64,000 nucleotides of DNA from an uncultured Chloroflexia bacterium (GTDB lineage: Bacteria > Chloroflexota > Limnocylindria > Limnocylindrales > CSP1-4): assembly GCA_963766735.1 (NCBI GenBank), contig CAVYBU010000006.1, positions 32,001-96,000 on the forward strand. The letters run 5' to 3'. Every line of letters starts with the position of its first letter. The stretch's first letter is position 1. The notes beneath the pieces were generated by a model, which did no database searches, was not told where the DNA came from, and worked only from the letters and a program-made list of their open reading frames with translations. Positions 41,618 through 63,885 of the stretch are shown in pieces. Made by a program: the position numbers and the translations under genes.

Positions 41618-43225
41618 TCAGGCAGCCGCCGCCTCGTCCGGCTCCTCCTGTTCGACCGGTCTGCCACTGGGCAGGTCCCTGGTGAATGCCAGGGAGGCGA
41701 GCGCGATGAGCGCCGCGGCCAGCAGGCCGACCTTGAGCGACCGGATCTGGGCCTGCTCGTAGTCGTCCACGATCGCCTGGGTCGTCGCCTCGTCGAGCCC
41801 GGCCCCCTGCAGGGCGGCCTCGACATCCGCGGAGGCGACGAAGTCGATCCCGGAGGCCGTCGCCTTCTCGATCTGCACGACGACCTCGGCCGGGATGCGG
41901 TCGTCCTGCTGGACGTTGGTCACGAACGCCCCGGTCAGGCCGACCAGCACCAGCGCCCCGATGAGGGCGACGCCGAGCGAGGACCCCAGCTGCTGGCCGG
42001 TGTACTGGAGACCTCCCGCCTCGCCCCGGCCGGACGAATCGACCGAGGACTGGACCACCAGGCCGAGCTGCGACGCGATGAGCCCCATCCCCACGCCGAG
42101 GATGCCCATCGCGGTGGCGAACGCGAGATCCGCCAGGTCCGGCTTGATTGTGGCCAGGAGGGCGAAGCAGGCGAGCGCAACCGTGGCCAGGCCGACCCTC
42201 GTGATCGTGCGGACGGGGTATCGGCCTGCCAGGCGCGAACCGGCTGCTGCCGCGAGGAACATGGCGACCGACGTCGGCAGCATCTTCACGCCCGTCTGGA
42301 AGGCATCGAGGCCGAGCACCAGCTGGAGATAGAGCGGGATGGTGAAGAAGATGCCCATCAGGATCAGGTTCTGCGAGAACAGCCCGATGAGCCCGGAGCG
42401 CAAGGGCGGGATCTTCACGAGGTCGAGGTGCACGAGCGGATCGGTGCCGGCCGCTTCCCGGTGCCGCTGCCACCACACGAACGTCCACAGGAGCACGGCC
42501 CCGCCGGCGATCACGAAGGGAGTCAGCGCGATGCCGAATGGCTCGACCGGCGAGTCCTTGGGCACGATCCAGCCCCACGTGCTCGACTGCAGGACTCCCA
42601 GGACGACGGCGCCCAGGCCGGCGGCGGACAGGAGCGTGCCGACGATGTCCAGCCGCGGCTTCGAACCCGTGCGCACGGCGTCTGCGACGAACTTCGTCAC
42701 GGCGAGGATGCCGATCACGATGACGACCTCTCCGACAAACACGATGCGCCAGGTCAGCTCGGTCGTGGCCCAGCCACCAAGGATGGGGCCGATCGCGATG
42801 CCGGCGCCCGCCACGCCGCCGATGATCGCGTAGGCGGCCTTGCGCTCCGTCCCCTCGAAGTTGCCGGCGATCAGCGCCGCCATCGCCGGCAGCACCAGGG
42901 CCGCGCCGATGCCCTCCAGGATCGACCAGCCCAGGGTGAGCTGGAGGACCGTCTGGGAGACCGCCGTCAGGCCCGACCCGCAGGCGTAGATGACGAGCCC
43001 GATCACGAATGCCCGGCGGCGCCCGATGATGTCGCCGATCTTGCCGCCGGTGAGCATGAACATCGCCATGACCAGGCAGTACAGCGTGATGACCGCCTGG
43101 ATCGTCGTGACCGTGGTATCGAACTCGGCGACCAGCGCGCTGATCGAGACGTTCATGACCGACTGATCGAGGACCATGATGAATTGCGCGCCGGCCAGCG
43201 CCAGCAGGGGCAATCGCCGGTTCAC
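41618..43225 (-). CDS. MFS transporter, DHA2 (14 TM) type
   Basis: AQFIMVLDQSVMNVSI, GKIGDIIGRRR and EGIGAALVLPA. Confidence 0.9.
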   Translation of the reverse strand: MNRRLPLLALAGAQFIMVLDQSVMNVSISALVAEFDTTVTTIQAVITLYCLVMAMFMLTGGKIGDIIGRRRAFVIGLVIYACGSGLTAVSQTVLQLTLGWSILEGIGAALVLPAMAALIAGNFEGTERKAAYAIIGGVAGAGIAIGPILGGWATTELTWRIVFVGEVVIVIGILAVTKFVADAVRTGSKPRLDIVGTLLSAAGLGAVVLGVLQSSTWGWIVPKDSPVEPFGIALTPFVIAGGAVLLWTFVWWQRHREAAGTDPLVHLDLVKIPPLRSGLIGLFSQNLILMGIFFTIPLYLQLVLGLDAFQTGVKMLPTSVAMFLAAAAGSRLAGRYPVRTITRVGLATVALACFALLATIKPDLADLAFATAMGILGVGMGLIASQLGLVVQSSVDSSGRGEAGGLQYTGQQLGSSLGVALIGALVLVGLTGAFVTNVQQDDRIPAEVVVQIEKATASGIDFVASADVEAALQGAGLDEATTQAIVDDYEQAQIRSLKVGLLAAALIALASLAFTRDLPSGRPVEQEEPDEAAAA

Positions 43226-43324
43226 CAGGTCAATCCTCCAGCCATCGCATCCGTCGTTTCGCAACACGGATCTTCGCACGCGGCGAGAGTCGAGAGTGGC
43301 GCGACCAGCACGACCAGAACACGG

Positions 43325-43357
43325 TCGAGCCCGGGCGGACGATCCACCCGGGCTCGA
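43325..43357 (-). repeat. 33-nt hairpin, copy 1 (copy 2 at 59694-59726)
   Basis: TCGAGCCCGGGCGGACGATCCACCCGGGCTCGA; 31/33 identical to copy 2. Confidence 0.85.
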
Positions 43358-43404
43358 GGTTCGTGATCGTGTGGGGCCTCCGGATCAGCCGGAGGCCGAG
43401 GGAG

Positions 43405-43587
43405 CTAGAACCGTCCGCGGCGGCCCGGCGTGACGGCCGCGCCGACAACCGCGGCCTTGGCGACGGGCGACGGCCCGGGCTTGACGGCGGCGCCGACGAC
43501 GGCGGCCTTCGCGACGGGCGACGGCCCAGGCTTGACGGCGGCGGTCACGACCGCGGCCTTGGCGATCCGGGAGGGTCTCATCGGCAT
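43405..43587 (-). CDS. 60-aa microprotein with 17-aa repeats
   Basis: AAGGAG RBS inside the upstream gene end; 51-bp periodicity with synonymous third-position changes; MPMRPSRIAKAAVVTAAV-(KPGPSPVAKAAVVGAAV)2-TPGRRGRF. Confidence 0.75.
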   Translation of the reverse strand: MPMRPSRIAKAAVVTAAVKPGPSPVAKAAVVGAAVKPGPSPVAKAAVVGAAVTPGRRGRF

Positions 43588-43588
43588 G

Positions 43589-44047
43589 TCAGGCTCCTTC
43601 TGCCCCGAGGGCCTCGTCGGCCTCGATGGCGGCGATGATCGCCTGGACGGGGATCCGTCCGTTGGCAACCAGTTGACCACCCGCGTGGCGCACGGCCGCT
43701 CCGAACGGCGCCGCCCACAGGTTCTCGAAGACGAGGATCCCGGCCGTGCTGCCGGGGCTCATCGCGTAGGCGAGGTTGTAGATGTCCTCCTCGGCCAGCG
43801 TCTCGGCAAGCTGGGCCTCGATCCCGGCCAGCTCCCCGAGGTCACCGAGGTCGGTGAGCTCCTGGACCGCGACCGAGCCGTCGTTGGCCTTGCCGACGAT
43901 GAGCAGGTCCATGACCCGGATCGTTCCGGAATCGTGGAGCCTGACGAGCTCCGCGAGCGCCTCGCCCGTGAAGTTCGCCTGCCCCGCCGGGAACTCGACG
44001 ACCAGGTAGTCGACGGGCCCCAGCTCGTCGATCGATCTCTCTGTCAT
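43589..44047 (-). CDS. DUF6325-family protein
   Basis: LGPVDYLVVEFP, GTIRVMDL, PGSTAGILVFENLWAAPF and GGQLVANGRIP; GGAGG RBS. Confidence 0.85.
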   Translation of the reverse strand: MTERSIDELGPVDYLVVEFPAGQANFTGEALAELVRLHDSGTIRVMDLLIVGKANDGSVAVQELTDLGDLGELAGIEAQLAETLAEEDIYNLAYAMSPGSTAGILVFENLWAAPFGAAVRHAGGQLVANGRIPVQAIIAAIEADEALGAEGA

Positions 44048-44191
44048 GACTCCTCCATCTTTCCGGCGTACTCGCGCCATCGTGGCTACGCTGCGCTCAT
44101 CCGGGCGCCACCGCATCCCACGCTGCGGGTGAAAACCGAGTGTGCCGAGCCCACGGCTCTGCATCGGCCACGGTGTCGTGGTGGCTCTGGA

Positions 44192-46558
44192 TCATTGTCC
44201 CACGTCCATCCGCGGCCGAGGGGGCAAGCCGGGGAACGGTTCGAGCAGGCCGAGATCGATCGCCTGCTGGACGGCCTCGCTGCGGCTCGACGCCCCGAGC
44301 TTGCCGTAGATCGAGATGGCCTGCGTCTTGACCGTGTGCGGGGACAGGAACATGCGCTCGCCGATCTCCTTGAACGTGAGCGGCGTCGACAGGATCGGGA
44401 GCAGCCGTAGCTCAGCGGGGGACAGCGCAGACGACCCGGCGAGGGCGGTGGACGCATCCTTGAGGCGTGTGCGCATCTCGGCGATGCCCGCCGTGAGGGT
44501 TCCGAGAGCGGGGCGCCTGCGGGCGATCGCTTCGGCTTGGGAGACCACGTTTCGCGCGCCCGCCGGATCGGCGATCGCCAGGTAGGCCCGGGCCAGCTCC
44601 AGGAGGGCACCGACTGCGGACCAGGGCCCGGCGTAGGTGGCGAGCGGGCAGACCAGCTGGGCGCGGACGAGCTCGTCGCGCGCGCGCGCCAGGCCACCAC
44701 GATGGATCGCCACGCGCGCCGCCACGGCGTGGGTCATCAGCGACACGGCGAAGTGGCCGAGTCGAGCGCTCGCGAGCACCCCATGGCTCTCGCGGGCAAA
44801 CTCCTCTGCCGCGCCCCAATCGCCCCGTGCGATCGCGAGGCTTGCCCGGTTCGCCCAGGAGACCATGGCACCCGCCATCCCTCCCGCCGACACGGCATCC
44901 GCGAACGCCGCATCGGCGGTCCCGTCGTCACCAAGGAGCAGATGTGCCGAGCCGAGCAGCGTGAGGGCGTTCGTCCGCCAAGGACTGCCCGGCGCCTCCG
45001 CGGCCACGGCAAACGACGCATTGGCGAGCATGTCCTCCGGTCCGTTCCGGGCCATGGCCGCACGCAGCAGCGCCCTCGATGACTCGAAGGACGCGGAGCC
45101 GTCGCCCGGATCGCCGCTATACGTCGAGTGCTCGGCGATGTCCGCCAGGTGCTCGCTGGCCTCCGGCCGTCCGTTGAGGAGGTGGATCCAGGAACCCGCG
45201 ACCGCCAGCGGAGGCCGCCGCGCAAGGGCGGCGTCGTCAAAGCTCCGCAGCCACCGGTCCAGCTTGTCGCCGTGACCGCCGTAAAGGGTGGGCAGGAACG
45301 TGGACACGACGAGCGCGGCGGCGGCGTCCATGTCGTCGCCTCGCAACGCGTGCTCAACGGCGAGCTCGATGCGGTCACCCGTCGCATACCAGGCCGCCGC
45401 TCGGCGATGCAGCTGCGGCACAAGGTCCGGCTCCCGTCGGGCGAGCTCCGCCTGCAGGAACTCGCGCAGGAGGTTGTGGTAGCGGTAGCTGCCCCCGGGT
45501 CCGCCGACCTCGCCGATGAGCTGGTTGGCCTCCGCGAGCGACTCCAGCCGTGCGGCCGCTCCGGGCAGACCGGTGACGGCCGTCGCGACTTGCGGCTCGA
45601 CGACCTCGAGGATCGAGCTCCTGGTGAGGAGCGCGGTGTCGTCGCCGGTCAGACCCGACAGGAACTCGGACCGCAGGTAGTCGGCTATGTAGTCACCCCG
45701 GTCCCGCGAGCCTTCGAGAAGGCTCGCGGACCGACCCGACCGCTTGCCGGCGAGGGTGACGAGGTAGATGCCCGCAGCCCACCCCTCGGTCCGTTCCGCC
45801 AGCGCCCGGACCTCGTCGGGTATCAGGGGGTGGTCGGCGGCAGTGGTCAAGGCCTCCGTCTCGGCGAGGTCCAGGGCAAGCTCGTCCCGCCCGAGCTCGA
45901 GGAGGTCGCGCCCTGCCCGGAACCTCCCGAAGGGGAGGGCCGGTGTGGTCCGTCCCGCCACCGCCACCTGGAACCCGGCGGGGAGGTGGTCGATGAGCGT
46001 CGCCAGGGCGTCGAGACACGTTCGGTCCACGAGACGGTGAATGTCGTCCAGGACGAGCACCGCCGGCCGGCCGATGCGGTGCATCTCGAACGCGAGACGG
46101 GGCACAGCCAGAGCGACGATCCGCGACTCGGGCGCCGCAATGCCCGATCGGATGGATCCATCGACGGGTTGGAGGCGGTCGATGGCGGCGGCGAGGTAGG
46201 CGAGGAAGACGCTCGGGACGTTGTCGAAGTCGTCGAGCGTCAGCCACCCGACGGGGCGATCCTCGCGCGCCGCCCACTCTGCCAGGAGCAGAGTCTTGCC
46301 GTACCCGGGCGGGGCGCTGACCGAGACGACCGAGGCTCGAGGCTCGGCCATCAGAAGGCCGATGAGCCGGTCGCGCGGGATCGTCCCGGGGCGGGGCGCA
46401 GGCGGGAGAAGCTTCGATTCGACCAGGGGGAAGGAGGGTTGGGAGCGCGGATGCGGCTCGGCGTCCGACGGCAGGCCCGACGCCGGGCGCGGCTCGTAGG
46501 CGTTGGCGACGGTCCGGATCCTCGCTGCGGGCGCGGCTGGCTGATGGACGAGACGCAC
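44192..46558 (-). CDS. MalT-like LuxR-family ATP-dependent transcriptional regulator
   Basis: ESKLLPP, Walker A APPGYGKT, VLDDIH, TEGWAAG, YRYHNL and C-terminal HTH LS.HTVKTQAISIYGKLG; start uncertain. Confidence 0.9.
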   Translation of the reverse strand: MRLVHQPAAPAARIRTVANAYEPRPASGLPSDAEPHPRSQPSFPLVESKLLPPAPRPGTIPRDRLIGLLMAEPRASVVSVSAPPGYGKTLLLAEWAAREDRPVGWLTLDDFDNVPSVFLAYLAAAIDRLQPVDGSIRSGIAAPESRIVALAVPRLAFEMHRIGRPAVLVLDDIHRLVDRTCLDALATLIDHLPAGFQVAVAGRTTPALPFGRFRAGRDLLELGRDELALDLAETEALTTAADHPLIPDEVRALAERTEGWAAGIYLVTLAGKRSGRSASLLEGSRDRGDYIADYLRSEFLSGLTGDDTALLTRSSILEVVEPQVATAVTGLPGAAARLESLAEANQLIGEVGGPGGSYRYHNLLREFLQAELARREPDLVPQLHRRAAAWYATGDRIELAVEHALRGDDMDAAAALVVSTFLPTLYGGHGDKLDRWLRSFDDAALARRPPLAVAGSWIHLLNGRPEASEHLADIAEHSTYSGDPGDGSASFESSRALLRAAMARNGPEDMLANASFAVAAEAPGSPWRTNALTLLGSAHLLLGDDGTADAAFADAVSAGGMAGAMVSWANRASLAIARGDWGAAEEFARESHGVLASARLGHFAVSLMTHAVAARVAIHRGGLARARDELVRAQLVCPLATYAGPWSAVGALLELARAYLAIADPAGARNVVSQAEAIARRRPALGTLTAGIAEMRTRLKDASTALAGSSALSPAELRLLPILSTPLTFKEIGERMFLSPHTVKTQAISIYGKLGASSRSEAVQQAIDLGLLEPFPGLPPRPRMDVGQ

Positions 46559-46610: not shown

Positions 46611-46997
46611 TCAGGAACGCGCTGGCGGGTCCGTCCGGCCGTGATTGGACGGATCGTTCTCTTCGAGGGCAGCCTCCACGTCGTAGCCTGCGGCCAGCGC
46701 GATCCTTGGGGCCGCCGAGATGACGCGCGCCGACCCCACGGCACCGGCAACTGCCACGACGACGCCGAGGACGTCCTCGAGCGCTGCTCCGGCCCGCTGC
46801 GCCGCAGCGACGGCAACAAGGTACGACGACTGCGGGGCATCCAGCGCCACGAGGGCCCCGATCCGGAGGAGCGCCTCGGTGCGCTCGTCCAGCCGGTGGA
46901 GGCCCGGGTCCTGTTGGCCGGGGTTCGCCATCGCCCCGATCAAACCGGGATCCCCGATCGTCAGCCGGCGGAACGCCTCTTCGGTGGACGGCATCAC
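46611..46997 (-). CDS. Carboxymuconolactone decarboxylase/AhpD-like protein (no CxxC)
   Basis: LDERTEALLRIGALVALDAP..SY...A.RAGA..EDV; GAGGAGG RBS. Confidence 0.78.
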   Translation of the reverse strand: MMPSTEEAFRRLTIGDPGLIGAMANPGQQDPGLHRLDERTEALLRIGALVALDAPQSSYLVAVAAAQRAGAALEDVLGVVVAVAGAVGSARVISAAPRIALAAGYDVEAALEENDPSNHGRTDPPARS

Positions 46998-47213: not shown

Positions 47214-47768
47214 TCAGTCGTGCTCGTTCCCGGCCACGAACGTCCGGCTCTGGCGTGCCGGCAGCTTCATCCGGTCGGGATCGATGTCATAGCTCCAGGG
47301 CAGGCCGGAGTTCTTCCAGCCGTTCTTCATCCGCATGCCGTCGAAGACGCTCTCGGCGTCCTTGACCTGGCTCCCCTCCATACCGTCGAGGATGTTCCAG
47401 GCATTCGTGAACCCGGCCGCCGCCAACATGTTGATCGCGATCGCGCTGCGGCCACCGGACCGGCACGTGACGAGGATCTTGTCGCCTGTCGCCGCCCAGC
47501 CCTGTACCGCCGCGACGAAATCGGGGTTGAGCTCCCAGCGCAGTGCCTTCTTCTCGGGGTCCCACTCGTACGTCTGGAGCGCGAACGGGATGTTCGTGGC
47601 CATCGGCGCGTGGCCGACGAAGACGAACTCCTCCGGCGTGCGGACGTCGAGGATCTTCAGGCCGGGGTCGGCCTGCCACAGGTCGTAGGCCTCCTTCGCC
47701 GTGACATACAGCCCGAGGCCGGTCTGGCGCGCCGCGGCGATCGTCTCTTGCGGGTGGTTCGCGATCAT
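47214..47768 (-). CDS. Rhodanese-like sulfurtransferase
   Basis: LDVRTPEEF..VGH, CRSGGRS active-site loop and GWKNSGLPW. Confidence 0.88.
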   Translation of the reverse strand: MIANHPQETIAAARQTGLGLYVTAKEAYDLWQADPGLKILDVRTPEEFVFVGHAPMATNIPFALQTYEWDPEKKALRWELNPDFVAAVQGWAATGDKILVTCRSGGRSAIAINMLAAAGFTNAWNILDGMEGSQVKDAESVFDGMRMKNGWKNSGLPWSYDIDPDRMKLPARQSRTFVAGNEHD

Positions 47769-47828: not shown

Positions 47829-49556
47829 TCAACCTGCGGCAAGGCGGGCCTCGATGTGGTGGACGGCGGCATCGACGGTCGGGAACAGGTGGTCTTCACC
47901 GATCTGGTCCAGCAATCCGGTCTTGGCGGCGAACTCCAGGACCGGCTGGTGGACCTCGGCGAAGTCCGTATCGATGCCGCGTTTTCGCAGCCGTCCCACG
48001 AGGCCCTTCAGCATGTCGGAGCTGGTGATGTCCAGGCTGTCCTGCCCGGCGGCGTCGATGAGCACGGCGCGCACCGGCCCATCAGAGTCCTCGAGCAGGC
48101 GCATGATCTGGTCCCGCACCGTCAGGGCATTCGCGTAGTAGAGCTGCGCATCCAGCCGCAGGATCAGGATGCCGGGCACGGGCGCTGCCGCAGGATGCCG
48201 CGTCACGTCGCCGAACGCTCCGGCCTGGTCTGGCATCCTCCCCAGGCGTGAGAGGTGTGGGCGGCTCGATCGGTAGATGATGATGAGCAGTGCGCTCACG
48301 AGGCCGATGAGCATCCCCGGCAGGACGTCGATGAGGATCACGCCCGCGAAGGTCAGCACGCCGAGCGTGAACTCCGTTCGCGACACCAGCCTCGCGGTGT
48401 GCAACTTGCGCGACGCGACGATGTGCCACAGCGCGTGCAGGATCAGCGCTGCGAGGATTGTCTCCGGCAGGTTCGTGAACAGCGGCGTGAGGAACAGGAG
48501 CGTCAGCACGACGGCGGCCCAGGCCACGAGCCCGGAGACCTGTGACCTCCCCCCGGCCCCGTCGTTTACAGCCGACGGCGCCATGCTGCCGCCGGCAACC
48601 TGCCCGCCGAACAGGCCGGTGGCGAAGTTGACGGCGGCATAGGCCCCCAGCTCCGTGTTCGAGTCGATCTCGTAGTCGTGCTTGTCGGCGTACTCGTGGG
48701 CAACGCCAAGAGACTGGCTGAACGTGACGAGCAGCATGGCGATCGCCGGCAGGACCATGATCGGCAGGACGGACAGCGGGACCGCCGGCACGGCGGGGAT
48801 CGGCAGGCCCTGGGGCAGCACGCCGACCACCTCCACGCCATGGGTGGCGCTGAGGTCGAGGACGGAGCTGACGACGATCGACCCGAACAGAACGATCAGC
48901 CCGGCGGGGATCTTCCGGTTCCAGCGCGGCAGGAGAACGAGCAGGGCGAGCGCGGCAATGCCCAGGACAAAGGTGAACCAGTTGGCGTCCGGCAGCTCAC
49001 GCACGATGCCGATCAGCTTCTCGACCGTGTTGCCGGCCGGTTTCTCCACGCCCAGGAGCTTGTTGAGCTGCCCGACCATGACGTATACGGCCAGGCCGGT
49101 GATGAAGCCGTCCAGCACCGGCTTCGAGAGGAACTGGGTGACGAAGCCGAGGCGCGCCAGCCGGGCGACCAGGAACACCGCGCCGACGACGAGGACGAAG
49201 GCGCCCACGTACTGCTGGTAGAGCGCAGGGTCGATGGGCGACCCGCTGGCAACCACGCCGGCCGCGACCATGACGGCCGTCACGGAGGACGCGATCAGGG
49301 CCGCCGACGCCGAGGTCGGCTGGACGAAGACGTGCCGCGAGCTGCCCAGCACCGCATAGACGAGCAGCGAGCACACCAGGGTGTACAGGCCGAACTGGGG
49401 CGGAAGCCCGGCAACACCGGCATAGGCCATCGATTCGGGAACGATGAGTCCCCAGACCGTCAGCCCGGCGATCGCGTCAGCGGTCAGCCAGCTCCGATCG
49501 TAGGCCGGCAGCCACGCGAGGATCGGGATGCTCCGTTTGAGTGTCGGGGTCGTCAC
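47829..49556 (-). CDS. SulP/SLC26 anion transporter with STAS domain
   Basis: DAIAGLTV...VPESMAYA..AGLPP.FGLY, FLSKPVL.GF and STAS LYYANA. Confidence 0.93.
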   Translation of the reverse strand: MTTPTLKRSIPILAWLPAYDRSWLTADAIAGLTVWGLIVPESMAYAGVAGLPPQFGLYTLVCSLLVYAVLGSSRHVFVQPTSASAALIASSVTAVMVAAGVVASGSPIDPALYQQYVGAFVLVVGAVFLVARLARLGFVTQFLSKPVLDGFITGLAVYVMVGQLNKLLGVEKPAGNTVEKLIGIVRELPDANWFTFVLGIAALALLVLLPRWNRKIPAGLIVLFGSIVVSSVLDLSATHGVEVVGVLPQGLPIPAVPAVPLSVLPIMVLPAIAMLLVTFSQSLGVAHEYADKHDYEIDSNTELGAYAAVNFATGLFGGQVAGGSMAPSAVNDGAGGRSQVSGLVAWAAVVLTLLFLTPLFTNLPETILAALILHALWHIVASRKLHTARLVSRTEFTLGVLTFAGVILIDVLPGMLIGLVSALLIIIYRSSRPHLSRLGRMPDQAGAFGDVTRHPAAAPVPGILILRLDAQLYYANALTVRDQIMRLLEDSDGPVRAVLIDAAGQDSLDITSSDMLKGLVGRLRKRGIDTDFAEVHQPVLEFAAKTGLLDQIGEDHLFPTVDAAVHHIEARLAAG

Positions 49557-49677: not shown

Positions 49678-50844
49678 CTACCCGAGGCGGATGCCTTCTA
49701 CCTCGAGCCCGCCGCCGTGCGGCAGCTTGCTCCAGCTCCGGCGCGCCCACTCCTCCTTGAGGACCTCCTCCGCCGCCTTCTCCAGGAACTCCGGCCGGGC
49801 CCATGCGTCCACGTCGAAGTCGTTCTTGATGTAGCCGTGCTTGAACATGAAGTCCTTGCCGATCTTGATGGTCTGCATGTTCATTGCGCTCAGGCTCGGC
49901 ACCATGTCGACGTGCTTGATGCCCTGGTACGTGTCCTCGGCATCCAGATAGAACGTCTGGCGGTTGAGGATCGCGCCGGCAGCGCGCTTGTGCTCATTGG
50001 CCCAGCGCCCGACCTTGACCATGGCCTTCATGTAGGCGATGACGAGCTCGGGATGCTCGTCGGCCATCTCCCTGGTGCATGTGATCACCGCGGGGGTGTT
50101 GGCGACCTGGATGGTCCAGTCGGGGTACCGGGACAGGTCCTCGATCATCTTGAGCTGGCCCGTGGCCTCCTGGAGATGCTGGAAGGGCTTGCTCTGGGTG
50201 TAGATGGCGTCGACGACACCGCCGAGCAGCGCCTTCTCGAGCGGGCGGAAGGCAAGGTCGTGCTTGTGGTCGCGGCGCATCCACAGCTCGGACGGGTTGT
50301 TCATCGGCGGGACGAGCATCTCCGGCTTGTCGTACCAGTCGTCCGGGTAGGGAAACTCGACGAGCTCGATGTCGTCCATCGTCATGTCGTGGAGCTTGAG
50401 CATGTTCAGGATGCCCATGTGCTCCTGGATCCGCCACCAGTCGTTCTTGATGGTGTTCAGGCTCTTGCTGATGCCGATCTTCTTGCCCTTGAGGTCCGAC
50501 ATCTTGAAGACGTCGTCACGGGCACGGACGACCATGCAGCCGCCTTCGTAGACCCAGGTCGCTCCCAGCAGCACGGTGCGCCGAAGGTCGGCGTTCACGT
50601 GGATCGGCGGGTAGAGGCCGCCGAAGCGGATCAGGTTGTCGAGGTTGTGGATGTAGTGCGGGTACCAGTTGTTCTCGGGAGCGTGGCGGAAGTAGGCGTA
50701 CTCGACGCCGATCTTCTTGAACTCCTCGCGGCACCAGCCCAGCTCCTGGTCCACGTTGTTGGCGGACACCATGGGGCAGTTGGTGAACCAGACCTCGTTC
50801 CAGTTCAGCGGGACGGTTGTGGAGACTCGGTGTACCTCTGCCAT
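49678..50844 (-). CDS. DszB-like desulfinase / SsuA-fold protein
   Basis: FTNCP, PHY and RFGGLYPP match the DszB Cys/His/Arg region; DLKGKKIG SsuA-fold motif; no signal peptide. Confidence 0.72.
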   Translation of the reverse strand: MAEVHRVSTTVPLNWNEVWFTNCPMVSANNVDQELGWCREEFKKIGVEYAYFRHAPENNWYPHYIHNLDNLIRFGGLYPPIHVNADLRRTVLLGATWVYEGGCMVVRARDDVFKMSDLKGKKIGISKSLNTIKNDWWRIQEHMGILNMLKLHDMTMDDIELVEFPYPDDWYDKPEMLVPPMNNPSELWMRRDHKHDLAFRPLEKALLGGVVDAIYTQSKPFQHLQEATGQLKMIEDLSRYPDWTIQVANTPAVITCTREMADEHPELVIAYMKAMVKVGRWANEHKRAAGAILNRQTFYLDAEDTYQGIKHVDMVPSLSAMNMQTIKIGKDFMFKHGYIKNDFDVDAWARPEFLEKAAEEVLKEEWARRSWSKLPHGGGLEVEGIRLG

Positions 50845-51019
50845 GTTCGGTGCTCCTCGTTCCTTCGTGCTGTTGGCCATCGCCAGTCCCGTCCTGCACG
50901 GCCCGCGCACTGGACCCGAGTCTCGCGTGACTTCCTGCCCCGACTCTGGTCCTCCAGCCGTCGGCCGGCATCGCGCGAATCGCGGCATTCCGTTCCCGCT
51001 CGGGGCGCTCCGCCCAGCC

Positions 51020-51460: not shown

Positions 51461-51561
51461 GATGTCCTAGGCTGGATCTCGCTGGATCCGCGCGACGGGC
51501 AAGTTCAGACCCATGGCGACCATCCCCGTCAACCGCCCAACCGTTGTTCGCGGGAGCGAGC

Positions 51562-52242: not shown

Positions 52243-52323
52243 ACGCCCAGCGGTGAACGTGTCGACCCACGGCCCGTTTGAGATGAGCCGCCGACGCACC
52301 GCGGGCGTGGCTATGCTCTTGCG

Positions 52324-57654: not shown

Positions 57655-57860
57655 GAGGTCGTCTCCCGTCAACGCTGTCCCGCCCAGCCCGCTGCCCAGG
57701 ACGGGAGCTGATCATCATCGACAAGCCGGGCAGGGCCCTCCTGCCAGGCGCCGCAACCAGTCCAGATTACATCCCTGATCCGGGGCATCGAACATCGAAC
57801 CCCGCGGATGATGCGGCGACCTGGGAGCGGGCCCCTGGCGCACCGGGACCGACTGATCGG

Positions 57861-58529
57861 CTACCGCCCCGGCCTGGATGCGCGGACCCGGTTCTGACCC
57901 AGGCGGATGAGCGGCAGCGCCAGCATCAGGGCGGTGGCCACCACGTAGAGGCCGACGGCGACGGGCGGAGCGACCAGGGCGCATGCGACCGCGATGATCC
58001 ATATCCCGATCGAGATCCTTCGTTGGCGGGCCATCGCCGCCAGCTCCTCATCGGCGACGTCGTCGATCAGCAGCGTCCGTTCACGAGCAAGGTGGGCCAT
58101 CAGGAAGGTCAGCAACAGCGATGCGACCAGCACGTTGATCCCGTAGATGAGCACCGCGACCTGGACATCGGGGCCGGCCAGGTGGCTCACCATCAGGCTG
58201 GTCGTGAACGGGAGCACGGCCACGAAGAGCAGGAACAGGAGGTTGAAGCTGAACGCGAGGGTGTCGCCGCGCTTCATGAGCCTCGTCATCCGGGTATGGG
58301 TGATCCAGTTGCCGCCGATGAAGGCGAAGCTGATGAGGTAGCCGAGGTACTCCGGCCACTGTTCGACCAGGGTCGGGAGCAATGGCTCGGGTCCGACCGG
58401 GACCGTCAGCTCCAGCACGAGCAGGGTGATCGCGATCGCGAACACGCCGTCAGAGAAGGCGTTGAAGCGGTCCAGAGGCAGTTCGTCGGCCGGGCGGGGC
58501 GCTCCGGCGCCGGAGTCTCGATCAGACAC
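57861..58529 (-). CDS. TMEM175 (DUF1211) family K+ channel
   Basis: RFNAFSDGVFAIAITLLVLEL signature; YLISF..IG..W..H and LPFTT. Confidence 0.9.
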   Translation of the reverse strand: MSDRDSGAGAPRPADELPLDRFNAFSDGVFAIAITLLVLELTVPVGPEPLLPTLVEQWPEYLGYLISFAFIGGNWITHTRMTRLMKRGDTLAFSFNLLFLLFVAVLPFTTSLMVSHLAGPDVQVAVLIYGINVLVASLLLTFLMAHLARERTLLIDDVADEELAAMARQRRISIGIWIIAVACALVAPPVAVGLYVVATALMLALPLIRLGQNRVRASRPGR

Positions 58530-58567
58530 TGTCGCTCCTCCATCTCGCCGGCCTTCCAGCAACGAGG

Positions 58568-58598
58568 CGAGAACCCGGGCTGGGCGCCCGGGTTCTCG
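58568..58598 (-). terminator. Perfect 13-bp-stem hairpin
   Basis: CGAGAACCCGGGC-TGGGC-GCCCGGGTTCTCG between the DUF6325 and TMEM175 genes. Confidence 0.55.
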
Positions 58599-58648
58599 AT
58601 CCTGTCAACCGGACCCGGGGGCCCAGCCGGCCAGTTGCTCCGTTGATC

Positions 58649-59620
58649 CTAGGCCTGGGCGTCCTCGGCTTCCTCGATCGCGACCTCCTCGGCGTCGCGC
58701 GACATGGAGACGACGTCCTCGGCCTCCTCGATCGCGACCTCTTCGACCTCGCGGGCGAGCGACACGACGTCCTCCGCCTCCTCGATCGCCGATTCCTCGA
58801 CGTCCGCGGACAGCGCCACGACTGCCTCCGCCTCCTCGACGGCGGCCTCCTCGACCTCGATGGCCAGCGCCACGACCTCCGCGGCCTCCTCCATGGCGGC
58901 CTCTTCGATCAGCTCGGCAGCGAACAGCGTGTCGATGACGTCCTCGGCGGCGGCGTCCTCGATCGCCAGCGCCATTGCGACGACGTCGGCGGCCTCGGCG
59001 ATGGCGGCCTCCTCGACGAGCTCCGCCATGACCAGGGTCCGGGCGATGTCCATCGCGGCCATCACCTTGATGGCCTCGGCCGCCTCGATGGCCTCCTCGG
59101 CCTCCATCCTGACCCGCAGCTCCTCGCCGACGAGGGCCAGGGCGTCGGGCGAGATCATCGCCTGCATGAGCGAACGCCCCCCGGCCTCGCCGATCGCGTC
59201 GCGCAGGCTTGCCGCCCAGTGGTGCTCGATCACGAGGATCGCGGCCGCCCCGCCGGCGGGAATGCTCTCGGCAAGCTCCTTCATGCGGTCCACGCCGAGG
59301 CCGGCGTCCCGCTCGGCCACGGCAAGCGCGCCCAGGATCTCGCCCTCGACCATGCCCTCGACGCCGCCCTCGTGCAGGCCGATGAGGCCGCCCGCGATCG
59401 CGCCCAGGCGCATCCGCTCGTTCTCGGACAGGTCGGTCATGTGCATCGAGTTCTCGATGCTGCCGTGCCTGTCCTTCTGGACGAACAGGATGTCCACGAT
59501 CCGGATCACGCCGCGCTTCCGTGCCCGGCGCAGCTCGGCCATGATCTTGCCGGTGGCCTCGAACTTGTCGAACCCGATCACGAACACCTGGATCGGGCCC
59601 GTCACGTGCTTCTCGCTCAT
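58649..59620 (-). CDS. DUF6325-like protein with Gly-rich insert and acidic 18-aa repeat tail
   Basis: GPIQVFVIGF, GVIRIVDIL and AAILVIEHHWA; tail AIEEAEDVVSLAREVEEV-like repeats; AGGAG RBS. Confidence 0.82.
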   Translation of the reverse strand: MSEKHVTGPIQVFVIGFDKFEATGKIMAELRRARKRGVIRIVDILFVQKDRHGSIENSMHMTDLSENERMRLGAIAGGLIGLHEGGVEGMVEGEILGALAVAERDAGLGVDRMKELAESIPAGGAAAILVIEHHWAASLRDAIGEAGGRSLMQAMISPDALALVGEELRVRMEAEEAIEAAEAIKVMAAMDIARTLVMAELVEEAAIAEAADVVAMALAIEDAAAEDVIDTLFAAELIEEAAMEEAAEVVALAIEVEEAAVEEAEAVVALSADVEESAIEEAEDVVSLAREVEEVAIEEAEDVVSMSRDAEEVAIEEAEDAQA

Positions 59621-59693: not shown

Positions 59694-59726
59694 TCGAGCC
59701 CGGGCCGACGATCGACCCGGGCTCGA
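59694..59726 (-). repeat. 33-nt hairpin, copy 2
   Basis: TCGAGCCCGGGCCGACGATCGACCCGGGCTCGA. Confidence 0.85.
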
Positions 59727-59751: not shown

Positions 59752-60378
59752 TCAGCCGGCGGCGGGTGCCCCACCCTCAGCGGCATCAGCGGCGGCCGCG
59801 GCGGCCTTGATCGCGTCCGCGGCTTCCTCGTCAACCGGGACCGCCTTGACCTCCTCGGCGTCCGGCATCTTGAGCCTGACGTCCTCGACGGCCGTTGCCG
59901 ACACGAGGCACAGGATGCCCGACGTGCCGGGGGTGATGACGTCGGTCAGCTGCTTCTCGACCTCCACCCGGTGGTAGAGGTTGCGGGCCTTGCCCGCAGC
60001 CGCGCCGGCGAAGCCCAGCGCAACGGCACCGCCGACGATCGTCGCCGGCAGGAAGATCCCGGCGACCACGCCGCCCACGATGCCCCACTTGAGGCCCTTG
60101 CGGGTGCTGTGCTCGGTCATCTTCTGGATGTGGATCCGGCCGTCGGCGTCGGCCTTGGCGACGAGGACGCCGTCGATCTCGAGCGAGCCGTCGATCTCGG
60201 CCGACTGGAGGTCCCGGTAGACACCGACGGCGGCGTTGGCGTCCGCGAAGCGGGCCACGATGAGGGCATGGTTGCCCTCGGCGGCGATGGCGGCCTCGGC
60301 GATCACGCCCTTGTCATCGGCCACCTGGGCAGCGACGACGACGACGTCCTCGGCCTGGGGGGTGGTCTCTTCGGTCAC
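59752..60378 (-). CDS. DUF1269-domain protein
   Basis: GLKWGIVGGVVAGIFLP...GGAVALG..GAAAG glycine zipper and PGTSGI; AGGAGG RBS. Confidence 0.82.
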   Translation of the reverse strand: MTEETTPQAEDVVVVAAQVADDKGVIAEAAIAAEGNHALIVARFADANAAVGVYRDLQSAEIDGSLEIDGVLVAKADADGRIHIQKMTEHSTRKGLKWGIVGGVVAGIFLPATIVGGAVALGFAGAAAGKARNLYHRVEVEKQLTDVITPGTSGILCLVSATAVEDVRLKMPDAEEVKAVPVDEEAADAIKAAAAAADAAEGGAPAAG

Positions 60379-60572: not shown

Positions 60573-61244
60573 TCAGGGTTCGGAGGCCGGCACCCCAGCG
60601 GCAGGTCCCGGCAGGTCTCGCTCCAGCGCCCGGGTGAGCCGGACGAGCGTGGCGGCAAGTGCCACGAACGCCACACCCGCCAGCCAGCCGGCGAGGACGT
60701 CAGTCGGCCAGTGGACCCCGAGCGCGATCCTCGAGAGCCCGATGAGCACGGGGAGGATCACCGCGAGGATGAGCACTGCCCGGCGGACCGCGAGCGAGAG
60801 CCGGCTTCGCCAGGCGACGAGCGCCAGGATCCCGTAGGTCACCGTGCTGTTGAGGGTATGGCCGGAGGGAAAGCTGTAGCCGGGCGCCGACACCAGGGGG
60901 TTCGCCGTCGGCCTGGGCCGGGCCACGAGCTCCTTCACGACCTCCGTGAACAGCGCCCCGGCGATGAGCACCAGAGCGACGATGATCGCAAGGTGGACAC
61001 GCCGCGAGACCGCGGCGGCCAGAAAGAGCGCGATCCCGATCAGGACGAGGATCTCCGCGCCGAGGAACGTGCACGCCTCCCAGAACCCGACCGGGACGGG
61101 GAGGGACTGCAGGGCGGTCGCAAGCGGCTCGTCGAACGCAAGGCCGCCGCGACGGACGACCAGCATGCCAAGGACGAGGAAGGCGATCGCGCACGCGAGG
61201 CCCACCCAGGGCCAGGTGTCGCGGCGGGTTGGGCGCGGCGTCAT
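60573..61244 (-). CDS. PAP2-family phosphatase
   Basis: K...ARPRP, SFPSGH and SRIALGVHWPTDV. Confidence 0.92.
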   Translation of the reverse strand: MTPRPTRRDTWPWVGLACAIAFLVLGMLVVRRGGLAFDEPLATALQSLPVPVGFWEACTFLGAEILVLIGIALFLAAAVSRRVHLAIIVALVLIAGALFTEVVKELVARPRPTANPLVSAPGYSFPSGHTLNSTVTYGILALVAWRSRLSLAVRRAVLILAVILPVLIGLSRIALGVHWPTDVLAGWLAGVAFVALAATLVRLTRALERDLPGPAAGVPASEP

Positions 61245-61270: not shown

Positions 61271-61606
61271 CTGGTGCCGCGCCCGGTCACGATGCCGGGG
61301 CTCCATACAGCGTGCCATACTCCGGCGTATGGACCTCACATTCGTCGGCTGGATCGTCGTTGGCCTGATCGCAGGGTTGTTCTCCGGCGTCGTCGCCGGT
61401 GGCCGGACGCTCCGGGGCTGGATGCCGAGCCTCGTCATCGGCCTGGTGGCCGCGGTCATCACCGGCTGGCTGCTGGTGTCATTCGCCGGGGTGGACTCGA
61501 TCACCAGCATCTGGGTCTCGGCGCTGTTCGCGTCGGTCGTCGCGGTCGTCCTCCGGCTGCTCATCAAGACGGTCTCGTTCAGCGGCGACTGACGGCCGGT
61601 AGGCGG
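61271..61606 (+). repeat. ~335-bp direct repeat, copy 2
   Basis: Matches 51908-52242. Confidence 0.93.
61329..61592 (+). CDS. GlsB/YeaQ/YmgE family membrane protein (paralog)
   Basis: 87 aa, near-identical to 51965-52228. Confidence 0.8.
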   Translation: MDLTFVGWIVVGLIAGLFSGVVAGGRTLRGWMPSLVIGLVAAVITGWLLVSFAGVDSITSIWVSALFASVVAVVLRLLIKTVSFSGD

Positions 61607-61722
61607 GCGCCAGGTCCCAGCGGGGGTCGGGCGTCGGGCAGGGAAGGAACAGACGCGCCGATGGCACGGTACGAACCACGCGCCCTGACAGGTCACCCCG
61701 CGCGAAGCGGAGGGACGCACCG

Positions 61723-63885
61723 GTGACGGCACCGGCGGTACGGACCCCCGCGGTCATCCCCGACTGGCTGGTCAACCTCGCGGCCCTCGGCTGGCGGATG
61801 ATCGTCATCGCGGCGCTCATCGTCGTGCTGTGGCAGCTCAGCGGGCTCCTGTGGACGGTCTCCGCCTCCATCGCGATCGCCATCGTCATCGCGGCCGCTT
61901 TCGCGCCGTTCGTCCTGCGGCTGCGCGCCCGCGGTCGATCGCAGGCTGCGGCGGCGGGGATCGTGTGGGTGGTCGCGATCGCCGTCCTCACCGGCGCTGC
62001 GTTGCTGCTCTCGTTCGCCTTGCTGCCGTCCATCGGCGAGCTGGTGACCAGGATCTCGGCCGCCATCGCGGAGGTCCAGGCACGGGTCGTCGAGAACGGC
62101 GTCCCACCGGACGTCGCGGCGTCTGCTCGAGCGGCCATCGATGCCGCCCGCGAGGCGATCGGCGCGGCCGTGGGCGACATCGTCGCGGCGGCCGGAGGCG
62201 TCATCACCGTCCTGGTCCTCGCCTCCTTCCTCGTGTTCTTCTTCCTGAAGGACGGCGACAGGGCCTGGATCTGGGTCTTCCAGGCCGTCAGCGACCAGAA
62301 GCGGGAGCGAATCACCGAGGCCGGTGAGGACGCGCTGGCACGCGTCGGCGGCTACCTCCGCGGAACGACGATCCTGTCCGCGATCATCGCGCTCACGGAC
62401 CTCGTGTTCATGTGGGTTCTGGGCGTGCCGCTCGCGGTGCCGCTGGCCGTCCTCGTCTTCTTCAGCGGCTACATCCCGTACTTCGGCGGCATCGTCACGA
62501 CGATGCTCATCCTGCTGGTCGCGTACGCGACCCTCGGCCTGGGACCGGTCGTGGTCTTCATCCTGCTGATCGCCATCCGCAACGCGATCCTCGGCTACGG
62601 CATCCGCCCGGCCGTGTATGGCCGAACCGTGAGCATCCATCCCGCACTCGTCCTCATGGCGCTGCCCGCGGGGTTCGCGCTGGCCGGGGTCGTGGGCCTG
62701 TTCGCGGCAGTGCCCGTGACGGCCGTCCTGCTCGCAGTGGCGGCGGCGACCGTGGCGATCGTTGACCCCGGTCCGCGCCCCGAGCTCCCTTCCCTGGTGC
62801 CGGCCTGGCTCGACCGGGTCGCACAGTGGAGCTGGCGCCTGCTGGTGGGCCTGGGCCTGATCACGCTGATCGTGCTGGTGATCGTTGCGGTGCCGATGGT
62901 CGTGGTCCCCATCGTCATGGCCACGATCCTCGCGGCCACGCTGCACCCCCTGGTTCGCGTCCTCGTCCGGCGCGGCCGGGGACGCGGGCAGGCCGCCGCG
63001 ATATCAGTGGGCGGGGGGATCCTCGCGGTCACCGCGGTCATGGGGATCGCCCTGATGTCGCTGGTGGGCCAGGCCGGGGCCATCGGGCGGGAGGCCTCTG
63101 GCGGCGCCGGGTCCGTGAGCGATGCGGCGGGCGGCACCCTCGAGATCCTCACAGCCGCGGTGGCCACCGGGGGGACCGACCTGGTGACGACCGCGGCCTC
63201 CATCGTGTCCGACGTGGGCGCGCTTGTCGTGGTCATCGTCCTGAGCGCCCTGCTGTCGTTCTACTTCCTCAAGGACGGCGGACACCTGTGGAGCCGGACC
63301 CTTGCGCGTGTCCGACCCGAGGCGGCAGGCGCGATCGACGAGGCCGGCAGCCGTGCGTTCGAGGTGCTGAGCGGGTACATGATCGGGACCGGCGCCATCT
63401 CGCTGGTGGGCGCGGCCAGCCAGCTGGTCATCATGCTGGTCCTGGGCATCCCGCTCGCGGTGCCGATCTTCGTCCTCTCGTTCTTCCTGTGCTTCATCCC
63501 CTACATCGGCGGCTTCATCTCGACCGGCATCGCGCTGCTGGTGACCATCGCCGTCGGCGTCCCATCGGACATCGTGATCATGGTCATCTGGACCCTCGTG
63601 TTCAACATCGTCACCGGCAACGTCGTCTCGCCGCTCGTCTACGGCAAGACGGTCCACCTGCACCCCGCGGTCGTGCTGGTCGCGATCCCGGCCGGAGGAG
63701 CCGTCGCCGGGATTGCCGGCATGTTCCTGGTCGTGCCCCTGATCGGCGTTGTCGCCGTGACCTGGCGCACAGTCCTCGCTGTCATCGGGATGCCGAGGAT
63801 CCCGCGCGGGGCGGCGGTGCCGGCGTACGCCGCGGCCGCCCCTGACCTCGTTGGTCCCGAGGCGGAGCCGGCCGAGGGCGGCTGA
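61723..63885 (+). CDS. Tandem (double-length) AI-2E family transporter
   Basis: Two halves, each with P.WL..A..WR, FFFLKDG/FYFLKDG, YIPYFGG/FIPYIGG and P.VYG(R/K)TV.(I/L)HPA. Confidence 0.88.
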   Translation: MTAPAVRTPAVIPDWLVNLAALGWRMIVIAALIVVLWQLSGLLWTVSASIAIAIVIAAAFAPFVLRLRARGRSQAAAAGIVWVVAIAVLTGAALLLSFALLPSIGELVTRISAAIAEVQARVVENGVPPDVAASARAAIDAAREAIGAAVGDIVAAAGGVITVLVLASFLVFFFLKDGDRAWIWVFQAVSDQKRERITEAGEDALARVGGYLRGTTILSAIIALTDLVFMWVLGVPLAVPLAVLVFFSGYIPYFGGIVTTMLILLVAYATLGLGPVVVFILLIAIRNAILGYGIRPAVYGRTVSIHPALVLMALPAGFALAGVVGLFAAVPVTAVLLAVAAATVAIVDPGPRPELPSLVPAWLDRVAQWSWRLLVGLGLITLIVLVIVAVPMVVVPIVMATILAATLHPLVRVLVRRGRGRGQAAAISVGGGILAVTAVMGIALMSLVGQAGAIGREASGGAGSVSDAAGGTLEILTAAVATGGTDLVTTAASIVSDVGALVVVIVLSALLSFYFLKDGGHLWSRTLARVRPEAAGAIDEAGSRAFEVLSGYMIGTGAISLVGAASQLVIMLVLGIPLAVPIFVLSFFLCFIPYIGGFISTGIALLVTIAVGVPSDIVIMVIWTLVFNIVTGNVVSPLVYGKTVHLHPAVVLVAIPAGGAVAGIAGMFLVVPLIGVVAVTWRTVLAVIGMPRIPRGAAVPAYAAAAPDLVGPEAEPAEGG

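Follow-up and report, generated by a model that had tools for sequence, protein, structure and literature searches.

The window analysed here is a 64-kb stretch of DNA (~70% G+C) from an uncultured Chloroflexia bacterium, and its region of interest, between 41.6 and 63.9 kb, harbours a gene for an arylsulfatase fused to an N-terminal DUF1269 domain, together with genes for DUF6325-type proteins, ion transporters and a MalT-like regulator. Genes were called from third-position G+C (GC3) and then checked against Pfam and NCBIfam. A previous sequence-only reading of this DNA had listed the genes of the region, and nearly all of them were found in place by the Pfam and NCBIfam searches. A genome scan for the fusion sulfatase confirmed 430 relatives, and all locus counts given below refer to the best 80 of these 430 (31 Chloroflexota, 44 Actinomycetota, and 5 with other labels), with flanks of up to 10 kb per locus. 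The nearest relative of the window locus, L001, is a Chloroflexota-labelled metagenome-assembled genome (MAG) with ~88-97% nucleotide identity, which has the same gene order from the rhodanese gene through AI-2E. The genes on which the argument is built are the following:

43405-43587 (-), repeat microprotein of 60 aa, with three PVAKAAVVGAAV-KPG units of 51 nt (TRF period 51 x 2.9)
43589-44047 (-), soluble DUF6325 protein of 152 aa without a glycine-zipper insert, start set by homologues (PF19850, 34.3 bits for the ORF 43589-44164, cut-off 23.4)
44192-46558 (-), MalT-like STAND/LuxR regulator, 788 aa if GTG 46558 is the start, as considered in a start scan (AAA_16, GerE, weak TPR_MalT)
46611-46997 (-), CMD-fold ("AhpD-like") protein of 128 aa, Cys-free
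47829-49556 (-), SulP/STAS protein #1 (Pfam, NCBIfam)
51020-51466 (-), C-terminal remnant of an NhaP-type Na+(K+)/H+ exchanger, a pseudogene (Na_H_Exchanger positions 236-342 of 375, E 0.0014)
52324-54027 (+), SulP/STAS protein #2 (Pfam 1.8e-83; TIGR00815 410 bits, cut-off 380), 95% identical to the L001 protein
54747-57654 (-), DUF1269-arylsulfatase fusion gene with a +1 frameshift, 968 aa when read through
58649-59620 (-), DUF6325-type protein of 323 aa, with a ~26-aa Gly-rich insert and, as its tail, acidic 18-aa repeats (TRF period 54 x 4.6)
59752-60378 (-), free DUF1269 protein (208 aa) whose glycine-zipper hairpin is hydrophobic (PF06897, 27.7 bits against a cut-off of 26.9)
61723-63885 (+), tandem double AI-2E protein of 720 aa (Pfam 1.7e-79, in 2 stretches; the halves are 42% identical)

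The fusion protein is composed of a DUF1269 domain (residues ~1-200; PF06897 38.5 bits, cut-off 26.9), a PAS-type Cys sulfatase domain with the motif CSPTR (residues ~210-750), and a C-terminal part of ~220 aa. The sequence-only reading had described this fusion as a single gene product; its domains are present as described, while the single open reading frame (ORF) is not. The DUF1269 domain and positions 1-164 of the sulfatase profile lie in ORF 55156-57672(-), and positions 161-301 of the profile lie in another frame, in ORF 54747-56543(-). The two-frame split of the profile results from an additional base at 56464, where five relatives read GACCC-CCAGAAG or equivalent. When the frameshift is read through, the protein is an uninterrupted 968 aa with all catalytic motifs; the lesion therefore either arose very recently or stems from an error of assembly. 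Relatives possess the sulfatase in a single frame, as in L067 (968 aa, profile positions 1-301).

The 120 listed relatives of the fusion protein are all 74-95% identical to it, which places it among the most conserved proteins of this analysis, and 118 out of the 120 carry PF06897, PF00884 and PF16347. Conservation is highest in the sulfatase part (mean column identity 81%), and CSPTR is invariant in alignments of 12 and of 30 sequences. The best solved relative is the arylsulfatase AtsA/PAS of Pseudomonas aeruginosa (1HDH), which aligns over chain residues 4-519 with residues 216-755 of the fusion (E ~1e-65), including the motifs DD, C/SxPxR, GKWH, HAPH and DNG. PAS is presumably a cytoplasmic enzyme. 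Neither PAS nor the fusion seems to have a signal peptide; the N-terminus of the fusion, MAHELTDVLVAGY..., judged by eye, does not look like one. PAS is a soluble protein of 536 aa, and the fusion adds to it the ~200-aa N-terminal DUF1269 zipper domain and the C-terminal domain of ~220 aa.

Long arylsulfatases of ~780 aa (arylsulfatase/AtsD), common on plasmids and chromosomes, share the sulfatase and the C-terminal domain with the fusion. On plasmids they cover the query from ~103-205 to ~928-956 at 37-45% identity, all 89 records are below 60%, and among the 25 listed the match begins at residue 103 or later, so that none covers the DUF1269 domain. The DUF1269 fusion itself was found on none of 72,556 plasmids, and a plasmid-borne cluster was ruled out on this ground. 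DUF1269-less arylsulfatase paralogues adjoin the fusion in about nine loci. AtsB of Mycobacterium tuberculosis, which we take to be ~970 aa long, may be a candidate orthologue of the fusion.

The neighbourhood of the fusion was assessed in two ways, by tblastn with the window proteins and by de novo clustering of all called ORFs followed by naming with Pfam and NCBIfam. With tblastn, homologues of DUF6325 and SulP were found in 31 loci each, of LuxR in 23, NhaP in 17, AI-2E in 15 and CMD in 11. Homologues of the MFS protein and of the free DUF1269 were found in 5 loci each, of the microprotein in 4, of the 134-aa protein in 3, of TMEM175, rhodanese, DszB-like protein and PAP2 in 2 each, and of the GlsB-like protein in 1. 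Clustering gave SulP in 30 loci, DUF6325 in 28, the sulfatase maturase anSME in 22, MalT-LuxR in 20, AI-2E in 19, NhaP in 17, ClC and DUF2252 in 13 each, DUF7144 and glutamate decarboxylase in 12 each, SHOCT-type small proteins in 11, two K+ channel families in 9 and 6, a phosphodiesterase with four transmembrane segments (4-TM) and LOR in 9 each, and DUF308 in 5. The glutamate decarboxylase exceeded its TIGR01788 cut-off with 654 bits. The sequence-only reading had asked for co-occurrence of its families in unrelated genomes: this was borne out for DUF6325, SulP, LuxR and AI-2E, while its TMEM175, PAP2, DszB-like, rhodanese, GlsB-like and MFS genes were present in at most 5 of the 80 loci. 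It had overlooked anSME, the most informative partner, as well as the NhaP remnant and the damage to both the sulfatase and NhaP genes.

DUF6325 is the commonest immediate neighbour of the fusion, upstream in 7 of 72 and downstream in 8 of 71 cases, and directly flanks it in 15 loci. Within 1, 3, 5 and 10 kb of the fusion, DUF6325 was found in 15, 23, 24 and 27 loci, anSME in 8, 14, 16 and 22, LuxR in 8, 13, 16 and 20, and NhaP in 8, 10, 14 and 15. DUF6325 near the fusion occurs in 13 of the 31 Chloroflexota and 15 of the 44 Actinomycetota loci, and each of the four major clades in the fusion tree includes such loci. Tight same-strand arrays of fusion, DUF6325, NhaP and anSME are present in Nocardioidaceae and Intrasporangiaceae. 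Pedococcus cremeus (L072) possesses such an array with AI-2E, fusion, DUF6325, microprotein, NhaP, anSME and SulP. NhaP and anSME overlap by 4 nt in L072, overlap also in L061 and are 1 nt apart in L076, and the two families occur together in 11 loci against 4.7 expected. The STAND-LuxR/CMD pair often adjoins the fusion or is divergent from it.

The pairing of sulfatase and maturase genes is textbook knowledge, and the fusion conforms to it, with a cytoplasmic-type radical SAM/SPASM maturase of the TIGR03942 class (472 and 456 bits, cut-off 349) near the fusion, often in the same array. Unlike in the usual pairs, the two genes are here interleaved with NhaP, DUF6325 and SulP, and the maturases that were checked possess an additional domain. 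All three of these maturases beside the fusion (L072:14898-16283, L001:2822-4354, and L049:3524-4903) have a C-terminal SEC-C zinc-binding motif (PF02810). The neighbours of the fusion, ion transporters and anSME, also differ from those of the sulfate-starvation ats genes of Pseudomonas, which presumably lie beside an ABC sulfate-ester importer. Near the fusion, nine loci also encode a 720-aa protein with a "phage holin 4_2" 4-TM part and a type I phosphodiesterase part (e.g. L007:3592-5754 and L009:2392-4554), a second enzyme of the alkaline phosphatase superfamily with a built-in membrane anchor.

At least 7999 relatives of DUF6325 exist; the 120 listed are mostly 152 aa long and none of them carries a sulfatase domain. 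Alignment with hhalign matched the DUF6325 profile to the DUF1269 domain of the fusion with 80% probability (E 1.4e-5), the zipper being an insertion that falls in a gap of DUF6325. DUF6325 is remotely homologous to the DUF1269 domain and lacks its glycine zipper. The free DUF1269 of the window did not match the DUF6325 profile significantly (E 0.07). From AlphaFold models, a preprint assigns DUF1269 a ferredoxin fold in which a glycine-zipper hairpin is embedded (bioRxiv 10.1101/2024.07.07.602159, as far as its accessible part goes). A search of PDB sequences with the DUF6325 profile gave nothing below E 0.4, i.e. no related solved structure, and the window DUF6325 is absent from the Atlas, where a 99%-identical homologue falls into clusters of DUF6325 only, with no structure. 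The sequence-only reading had counted two DUF6325 genes, and the second was confirmed as the 323-aa protein. Its residues 6-162 match the DUF6325 profile in hhalign (99.4%, E 1.8e-21), the match being interrupted by the Gly-rich insert; in Pfam it has no DUF6325 match and reaches 24.8 bits for DUF1269, under the cut-off of 26.9. The acidic repeats of its tail (18 aa, 54 nt; 58660-59037) vary in number, with 323 aa in the window against 287 aa in the L001 orthologue (L001:9008-9871), i.e. a variable tandem-repeat tail between close relatives. Eighty-seven longer predicted proteins contain DUF6325, with single cases joined to a sulfatase, NhaP, MalT-TPR, DUF2252, DUF308 or DUF1269 and two joined to FGE; two that were inspected look like read-through of neighbouring genes.

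The microprotein gene starts 1 nt past the DUF6325 stop codon in the window, and 1 nt is also the typical distance across the loci. Members of the family begin with MP(L/M)RPxR..., followed by an Ala/Val/Gly/Thr-rich helix (PVA-R/K-TAAVVGTAAVV) and an Arg/Asp-repeat or longer SHOCT-type tail; the window microprotein is a member with a triplicated helix unit. It is a genuine coding gene, kept in L007, L009, L010 and L012; the AAGGAG Shine-Dalgarno site is conserved and the substitutions in these four relatives are mostly at third positions. Of 38 DUF6325 genes, 23 have a downstream microprotein ORF under a fixed rule and 18 under a stricter one; the corresponding figures for 1525 other genes are 6 and 4. 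Both rules combined gave 26 DUF6325 genes, plus two recognised by eye. The ORF is present at 23 of 31 DUF6325 genes without the insert and at 0 of 7 that bear it (Fisher p 5e-4). Against Pfam, the microproteins gave no real match, only DUF3824 at E 0.12-0.81. Because DUF6325 and DUF1269 are homologous and the microprotein is tied to insert-less DUF6325, we propose that DUF6325 and the microprotein may be a two-piece, split counterpart of DUF1269.

Proteins of the DUF1269 Pfam family are also encoded in Microcystis, within ten genes either side of ccyA, and a Ca2+/H+ exchanger gene lies directly 3' of ccyA (10.1101/2024.07.07.602159). In the accessible part of that work they are free proteins in a calcium/carbonate context, without sulfatase fusion, DUF6325 or microprotein partner. 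A literature search found DUF6325 mentioned in no paper. DUF1269 was mentioned, with no function given in the accessible portions of the papers, and the literature that could be searched contains no description of the DUF1269 fusion, of a DUF6325/microprotein partner, of the interleaving with NhaP, SulP and AI-2E, or of the LuxR/CMD pair.

The regulator matches AAA_16 with 33.2 bits (cut-off 32.6), GerE with 31.8 (23.5), and TPR_MalT with 23.3 (45). Its match to NCBIfam PRK04841 (MalT; E 1.6e-71) reaches 241.5 bits, under the cut-off of 537, and it is for this reason MalT-like and not a MalT orthologue. The CMD-fold protein is a conserved companion of the LuxR. Its earlier label "AhpD-like" holds for the CMD fold, which is evident from the homologue in L007 (CMD, 1.2e-7), the window protein having no Pfam CMD match of its own; it does not hold for the AhpD-type CxxC. 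The protein has no cysteine at all, and an AhpD-type peroxidase at 46611-46997(-) was therefore excluded. Among its relatives, in the aligned C-terminal stretch, 6 of the 7 printed are without cysteine and none has CxxC.

The transporter families are well defined: Pfam scores of SulP and AI-2E, as well as those of TMEM175, PAP2 and the rhodanese, all exceed the gathering cut-offs. The two SulP/STAS proteins of the window are 35% identical to each other, and in NCBIfam the BicA and DauA models score far under their cut-offs on them. Full-length homologues of the double AI-2E protein are present in L001, L009 and L010. NhaP is intact in L001 (443 aa), and ~800 nt of it are missing from the window copy. 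Cyanobacteria pair the SulP carrier BicA with a Na+/H+ antiporter, and acid resistance of E. coli involves glutamate decarboxylase and ClC. The logic of these systems, an anion carrier combined with a cation/H+ antiporter or a proton-consuming enzyme, resembles that of the neighbours of the fusion, beside which both gene sets recur; we know of no sulfatase or DUF1269/DUF6325 proteins in either of them. The anion/pH-balancing theme of the sequence-only reading fits these wider neighbours (NhaP, ClC, glutamate decarboxylase, K+ channels).

Across the loci, the conserved core consists of the fusion, DUF6325 with the microprotein, anSME, NhaP, SulP/STAS, AI-2E, and the MalT-like LuxR with its Cys-less CMD partner. 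We tentatively read the window, with a confidence that falls a little short of even, as a partly decayed copy of a two-phylum gene cluster that has a PAS-type arylsulfatase, cytoplasmic and tethered to the membrane, at its centre and that is located here inside a variable island of genes for transporters and small membrane proteins. The module of the window is probably not fully functional, since its sulfatase gene is frameshifted and its NhaP gene truncated. In an intact cluster, the maturase would convert the cysteine of CSPTR to formylglycine in the cytoplasm, and the glycine-zipper hairpin of DUF1269 would keep the enzyme at the inner membrane face. An anionic sulfate ester, imported possibly via SulP or AI-2E or already resident in the membrane, would be hydrolysed to alcohol, sulfate and a proton; SulP and NhaP would carry the sulfate and rebalance cations and pH. 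The STAND/LuxR regulator would turn the genes on in response to a ligand, and DUF6325 and the microprotein would probably co-assemble with DUF1269 through packing of small-residue helices.

Several observations weigh against this reading. Neighbourhoods of a second flavour carry ClC and glutamate decarboxylase together (6 loci against 1.9 expected) and are anticorrelated with anSME/NhaP; because the two flavours avoid each other, the fusion is not bound to one partner set. Fourteen of the 80 loci have none of 18 recurrent families, and 26 have none of SulP, DUF6325, LuxR and AI-2E; these include the loci of Rhodococcus and Mycobacterium. In the window, 8-11 kb separate the fusion from the DUF6325-microprotein pair and from the LuxR, and no formylglycine maturase (FGE/anSME) was found in the 64 kb by Pfam/NCBIfam. 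The zipper helices, ~14-16 residues each, are short for full membrane spans, and no substrate importer was identified. The fusion gene of six more loci, mostly MAGs (L007, L013, L025, L031, L060 and L075), shows split overlapping tblastn segments, and the window frameshift may be an assembly error, the nearest relatives being metagenome-assembled. Flanks were complete in 50 of the 80 loci only, the GC3 heuristic used for gene calling in the loci overlooks small genes, and enrichment of neighbours was judged from distance decay and from copy numbers that we assumed to be typical. Substrate, topology, regulation and any protein-protein contact are inferred.

The ClC flavour of the neighbourhoods also occurs with K+ channels. 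By synteny, the position of the L001 maturase equates to ~300 nt past the window end. Deletion of the maturase from the window was dropped as an explanation, given that the L001 maturase lies beyond AI-2E, outside the range of the window.

A more far-reaching version of the reading is doubtful at present. In it, DUF1269 and the DUF6325-microprotein pair would be the fused and the split form of one membrane-docking module, which would organise an assembly of sulfatase, SulP, NhaP and AI-2E under the STAND-LuxR/CMD sensor pair and couple ester hydrolysis to sulfate and proton/cation handling. As part of the same, equally doubtful reading, the module would be a previously unrecognised combination of a ferredoxin-fold domain with a small-residue zipper helix. 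If so, soil Actinomycetota and Chloroflexota would couple ester hydrolysis to ion handling at the inner membrane face. The split-versus-fused pattern gives a concrete structural prediction. The core of fusion, DUF6325, microprotein, NhaP, anSME and SulP offers a testable handle, in cultured isolates, on two large DUF families and on a link between cytoplasmic sulfate-ester hydrolysis and ion balance, with a fusion sulfatase conserved in two abundant soil phyla. The conserved core is genuine and the structural hypothesis for two DUF families is new; PAS-type sulfatases and sulfatase-maturase pairing were already known. The window itself is less exciting, its copy being apparently damaged in part and a large share of the 22 kb being lineage-specific.

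The remaining features of the region are the following:

41618-43279 (-), DHA2-type MFS protein, 553 aa from the first start codon (Pfam MFS_1 1.6e-45; TIGR00711 E 1.6e-50, below cut-off)
43325-43357, copy 1 of the palindromic hairpin, in the gap that separates the microprotein stop from the MFS start
47214-47768 (-), single-domain rhodanese with a CRSGGRS loop (Pfam 9e-12)
49678-50880 (-), DszB-like protein of the SsuA/NMT1-type fold, start uncertain as the ORF extends to 51060 (SsuA_fam 6.2e-15)
51562-51840 (-), possible (putative) 92-aa Ala/Pro-repeat ORF (TRF period 24), with a homologue in L001 only
51908-52247 (+), duplicated unit copy 1, with the coding sequence (CDS) of an 87-aa Gly-rich membrane protein at 51965-52228, upstream of SulP#2
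54197-54601 (-), 134-aa hydrophobic, probably membrane protein, weakly DUF7144-like (Pfam E 2.6e-4, below cut-off)
57861-58562 (-), TMEM175-type K+ channel (Pfam 8.2e-25)
59694-59726, palindromic hairpin copy 2, 3' of the free DUF1269 gene
60573-61244 (-), PAP2 phosphatase (Pfam, NCBIfam)
61271-61611 (+), duplicated unit copy 2, with a GlsB/YeaQ-like CDS at 61329-61592, upstream of AI-2E

The island seems to carry the DszB-like and rhodanese genes, TMEM175, PAP2, MFS and the GlsB-like genes as lineage-specific passengers. The DszB-like protein has DszB (2DE2) as its sole significant solved relative (E 9.3e-9, 38 bits, residues 32-369 against 24-360), with FTNCP aligned to YSNCP and RFGGLYPP to RFGGEIPP, and the earlier DszB-like label, with the cysteine of NCP aligned, is thus upheld. 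Unlike in the dsz system, no DszA/DszC monooxygenase family is among the Pfam/NCBIfam matches of the window, and the gene is paired with a rhodanese gene. The pair fits an organosulfur theme, yet it is rare, in 2 of the 80 loci. The two loci with a rhodanese are L001 and L025; in the latter, of Actinomycetota label, the DszB-like and rhodanese proteins (L025:3-2846) are 85% and 75% identical to those of the window, far above the other shared genes, which points to either a transfer between phyla or a binning problem. The gene of the 134-aa DUF7144-like protein adjoins the fusion in L001, L004 and L005.

The duplication of 340 nt (51908-52247 and 61271-61611, 93-95% identity) comprises the gene of the 87-aa Gly-rich membrane protein and 57 nt upstream of it, and each copy sits just 5' of a plus-strand transporter gene, SulP#2 or AI-2E. 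Both genes exist as the sequence-only reading had them, while its family name GlsB/YeaQ is weak: the sole match is to NCBIfam PRK10457 (E 1.1e-4; 22.7 bits, cut-off 129), and Pfam Transgly_assoc did not match the 87-aa proteins at E <= 0.05. L001 lacks an 838-nt segment (57784-58621) that carries the TMEM175 gene; at the edges of this segment only CCGG microhomology was seen, and no inverted repeats, target duplication or mobile element. At the position of SulP#1, L001 has an enoyl-CoA hydratase gene, and it also has an HTH gene; both are absent from the window.

The hairpin that had been noted before is real. The 33-nt palindrome TCGAGCCCGGG-N11-CCCGGGCTCGA occurs exactly 2 times in the 64 kb (43325 and 59694), against 0.02 expected, and L001 carries it at the place equivalent to copy 2. 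RNA folding gave -50.2 kcal/mol (z -7.5) for copy 1, which is 3' of the microprotein gene, and -37.7 kcal/mol (z -4.5) for copy 2. These large hairpins are absent from the terminator-scan matches, and because they have no T-tract we infer hairpins that are terminator-like or mark mRNA ends, not an operator. An upstream motif shared by several genes had also been claimed; over 13 intergenic regions nothing beyond chance was detected, the top words being present in 4-5 of the 13 against 3-7 in shuffles. A sigma-70 scan gave 0 promoter-like sites, and a terminator scan 6 terminator-like sites against 4.7 in the shuffled expectation.

In the proposal of the sequence-only reading, the whole 22 kb is one co-regulated module for organosulfur desulfurisation and anion/pH balance under the MalT-like LuxR, with a DUF scaffold recruiting the sulfatase. 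All of its genes are present, the majority on one strand, and the genuine DszB likeness with its aligned catalytic-cysteine motif, the active-site cysteine loop of the rhodanese, the identical hairpin at two sites, and the presence in L025 of DszB-like, rhodanese, SulP, DUF6325 and fusion genes within 10 kb speak for it. We nevertheless consider it highly improbable. DszB-like, rhodanese, TMEM175 and PAP2 are each present in 2 of the 80 loci, the GlsB-like protein in 1 and MFS in 5, and TMEM175 and SulP#1 are missing from L001, which is at odds with one conserved 22-kb unit. Co-regulation gains nothing from the 13 intergenic regions, where a common promoter motif was not found, and no dszA/dszC-type monooxygenase, ssu, tau or cys family is among the Pfam/NCBIfam matches of the window. 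The window sulfatase and NhaP are damaged. Recruitment of the sulfatase by DUF proteins is unnecessary, because the sulfatase is itself fused to DUF1269. An island of ion- and pH-stress genes is somewhat easier to defend, though still improbable. Here, DUF1269 and DUF6325 with the microprotein would be the centre, acting as small ferredoxin-fold sensors or, for neighbouring transporters, as pore or regulator modules of the glycine-zipper kind; the sulfatase would be just one among several enzymes that are fused to them or located next to them. An ion-transporter family is present in 49 of the 80 loci, and the counts of NhaP (17), ClC (13), glutamate decarboxylase (12), K+ channels (9 and 6), DUF308 (5) and AI-2E (19) agree with such an island. 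It would also account for the holin-fused 4-TM enzyme in 9 loci, for the huge DUF6325 family whose listed members have no sulfatase domain, and for the DUF1269 proteins near ccyA of Microcystis with the Ca2+/H+ exchanger gene next to it, as far as the accessible part of that source describes them. It does not explain why the sulfatase part is the most conserved of all, and the frequent dedicated maturase argues that catalysis matters; a ligand-binding or pore role of the DUF proteins would have to be presumed, and the profile search of PDB sequences offered no solved structure related to DUF6325.

An ordinary sulfatase-maturase pair, near which stress, ion-transport and small membrane genes merely accumulate as they do in variable regions of soil Actinomycetota and Chloroflexota, is unlikely too, but of the alternatives it deserves the most attention. 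The fast gene turnover between the window and L001 (TMEM175 indel, SulP#1 against enoyl-CoA hydratase, HTH gene, and NhaP deletion), the duplicated GlsB-like unit, the two alternative flavours of neighbours, the 14 loci without any recurrent family, and a VapBC-like pair at the region border are all what such accumulation would leave behind. The position of DUF6325 is harder to reconcile with it, as 15 of the 27 loci with DUF6325 within 10 kb have it within 1 kb, directly flanking the fusion. The same partner set occurs in both phyla, in the tight arrays of Nocardioidaceae and Intrasporangiaceae NhaP and anSME overlap or lie 1 nt apart, with SulP next in L072, and DUF6325 is homologous to the N-terminal domain of the fusion.

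Outside the cluster, the window encodes backbone functions, such as Tad/Flp pilus and pseudopilin-like proteins (1-4164), nadB/nadC/nadA (21254-25389) and tRNA-Thr(CGT) (13547-13621), which indicate an ordinary chromosome and not a mobile element. The tRNA, which lies outside the region, is the single match of the Rfam scan, in which no riboswitch was found. None of 19 region proteins matched PADLOC, and a reading as defence island was dropped. At the left border of the region, an RHH gene overlapping a PIN-domain gene (40947-41596(+)) forms a VapBC-like toxin-antitoxin pair, and further PIN genes are present upstream (25999-26445(-) and 26704-27090(-)). Elsewhere in the window we found genes for a voltage-gated-type K+ channel (9084-9935(-)), a rhodanese (15755-16195(-)), and an MFS protein with a weakly DUF7144-like protein and MarR (27237-30045(+)), families which also recur near the fusion in other genomes.

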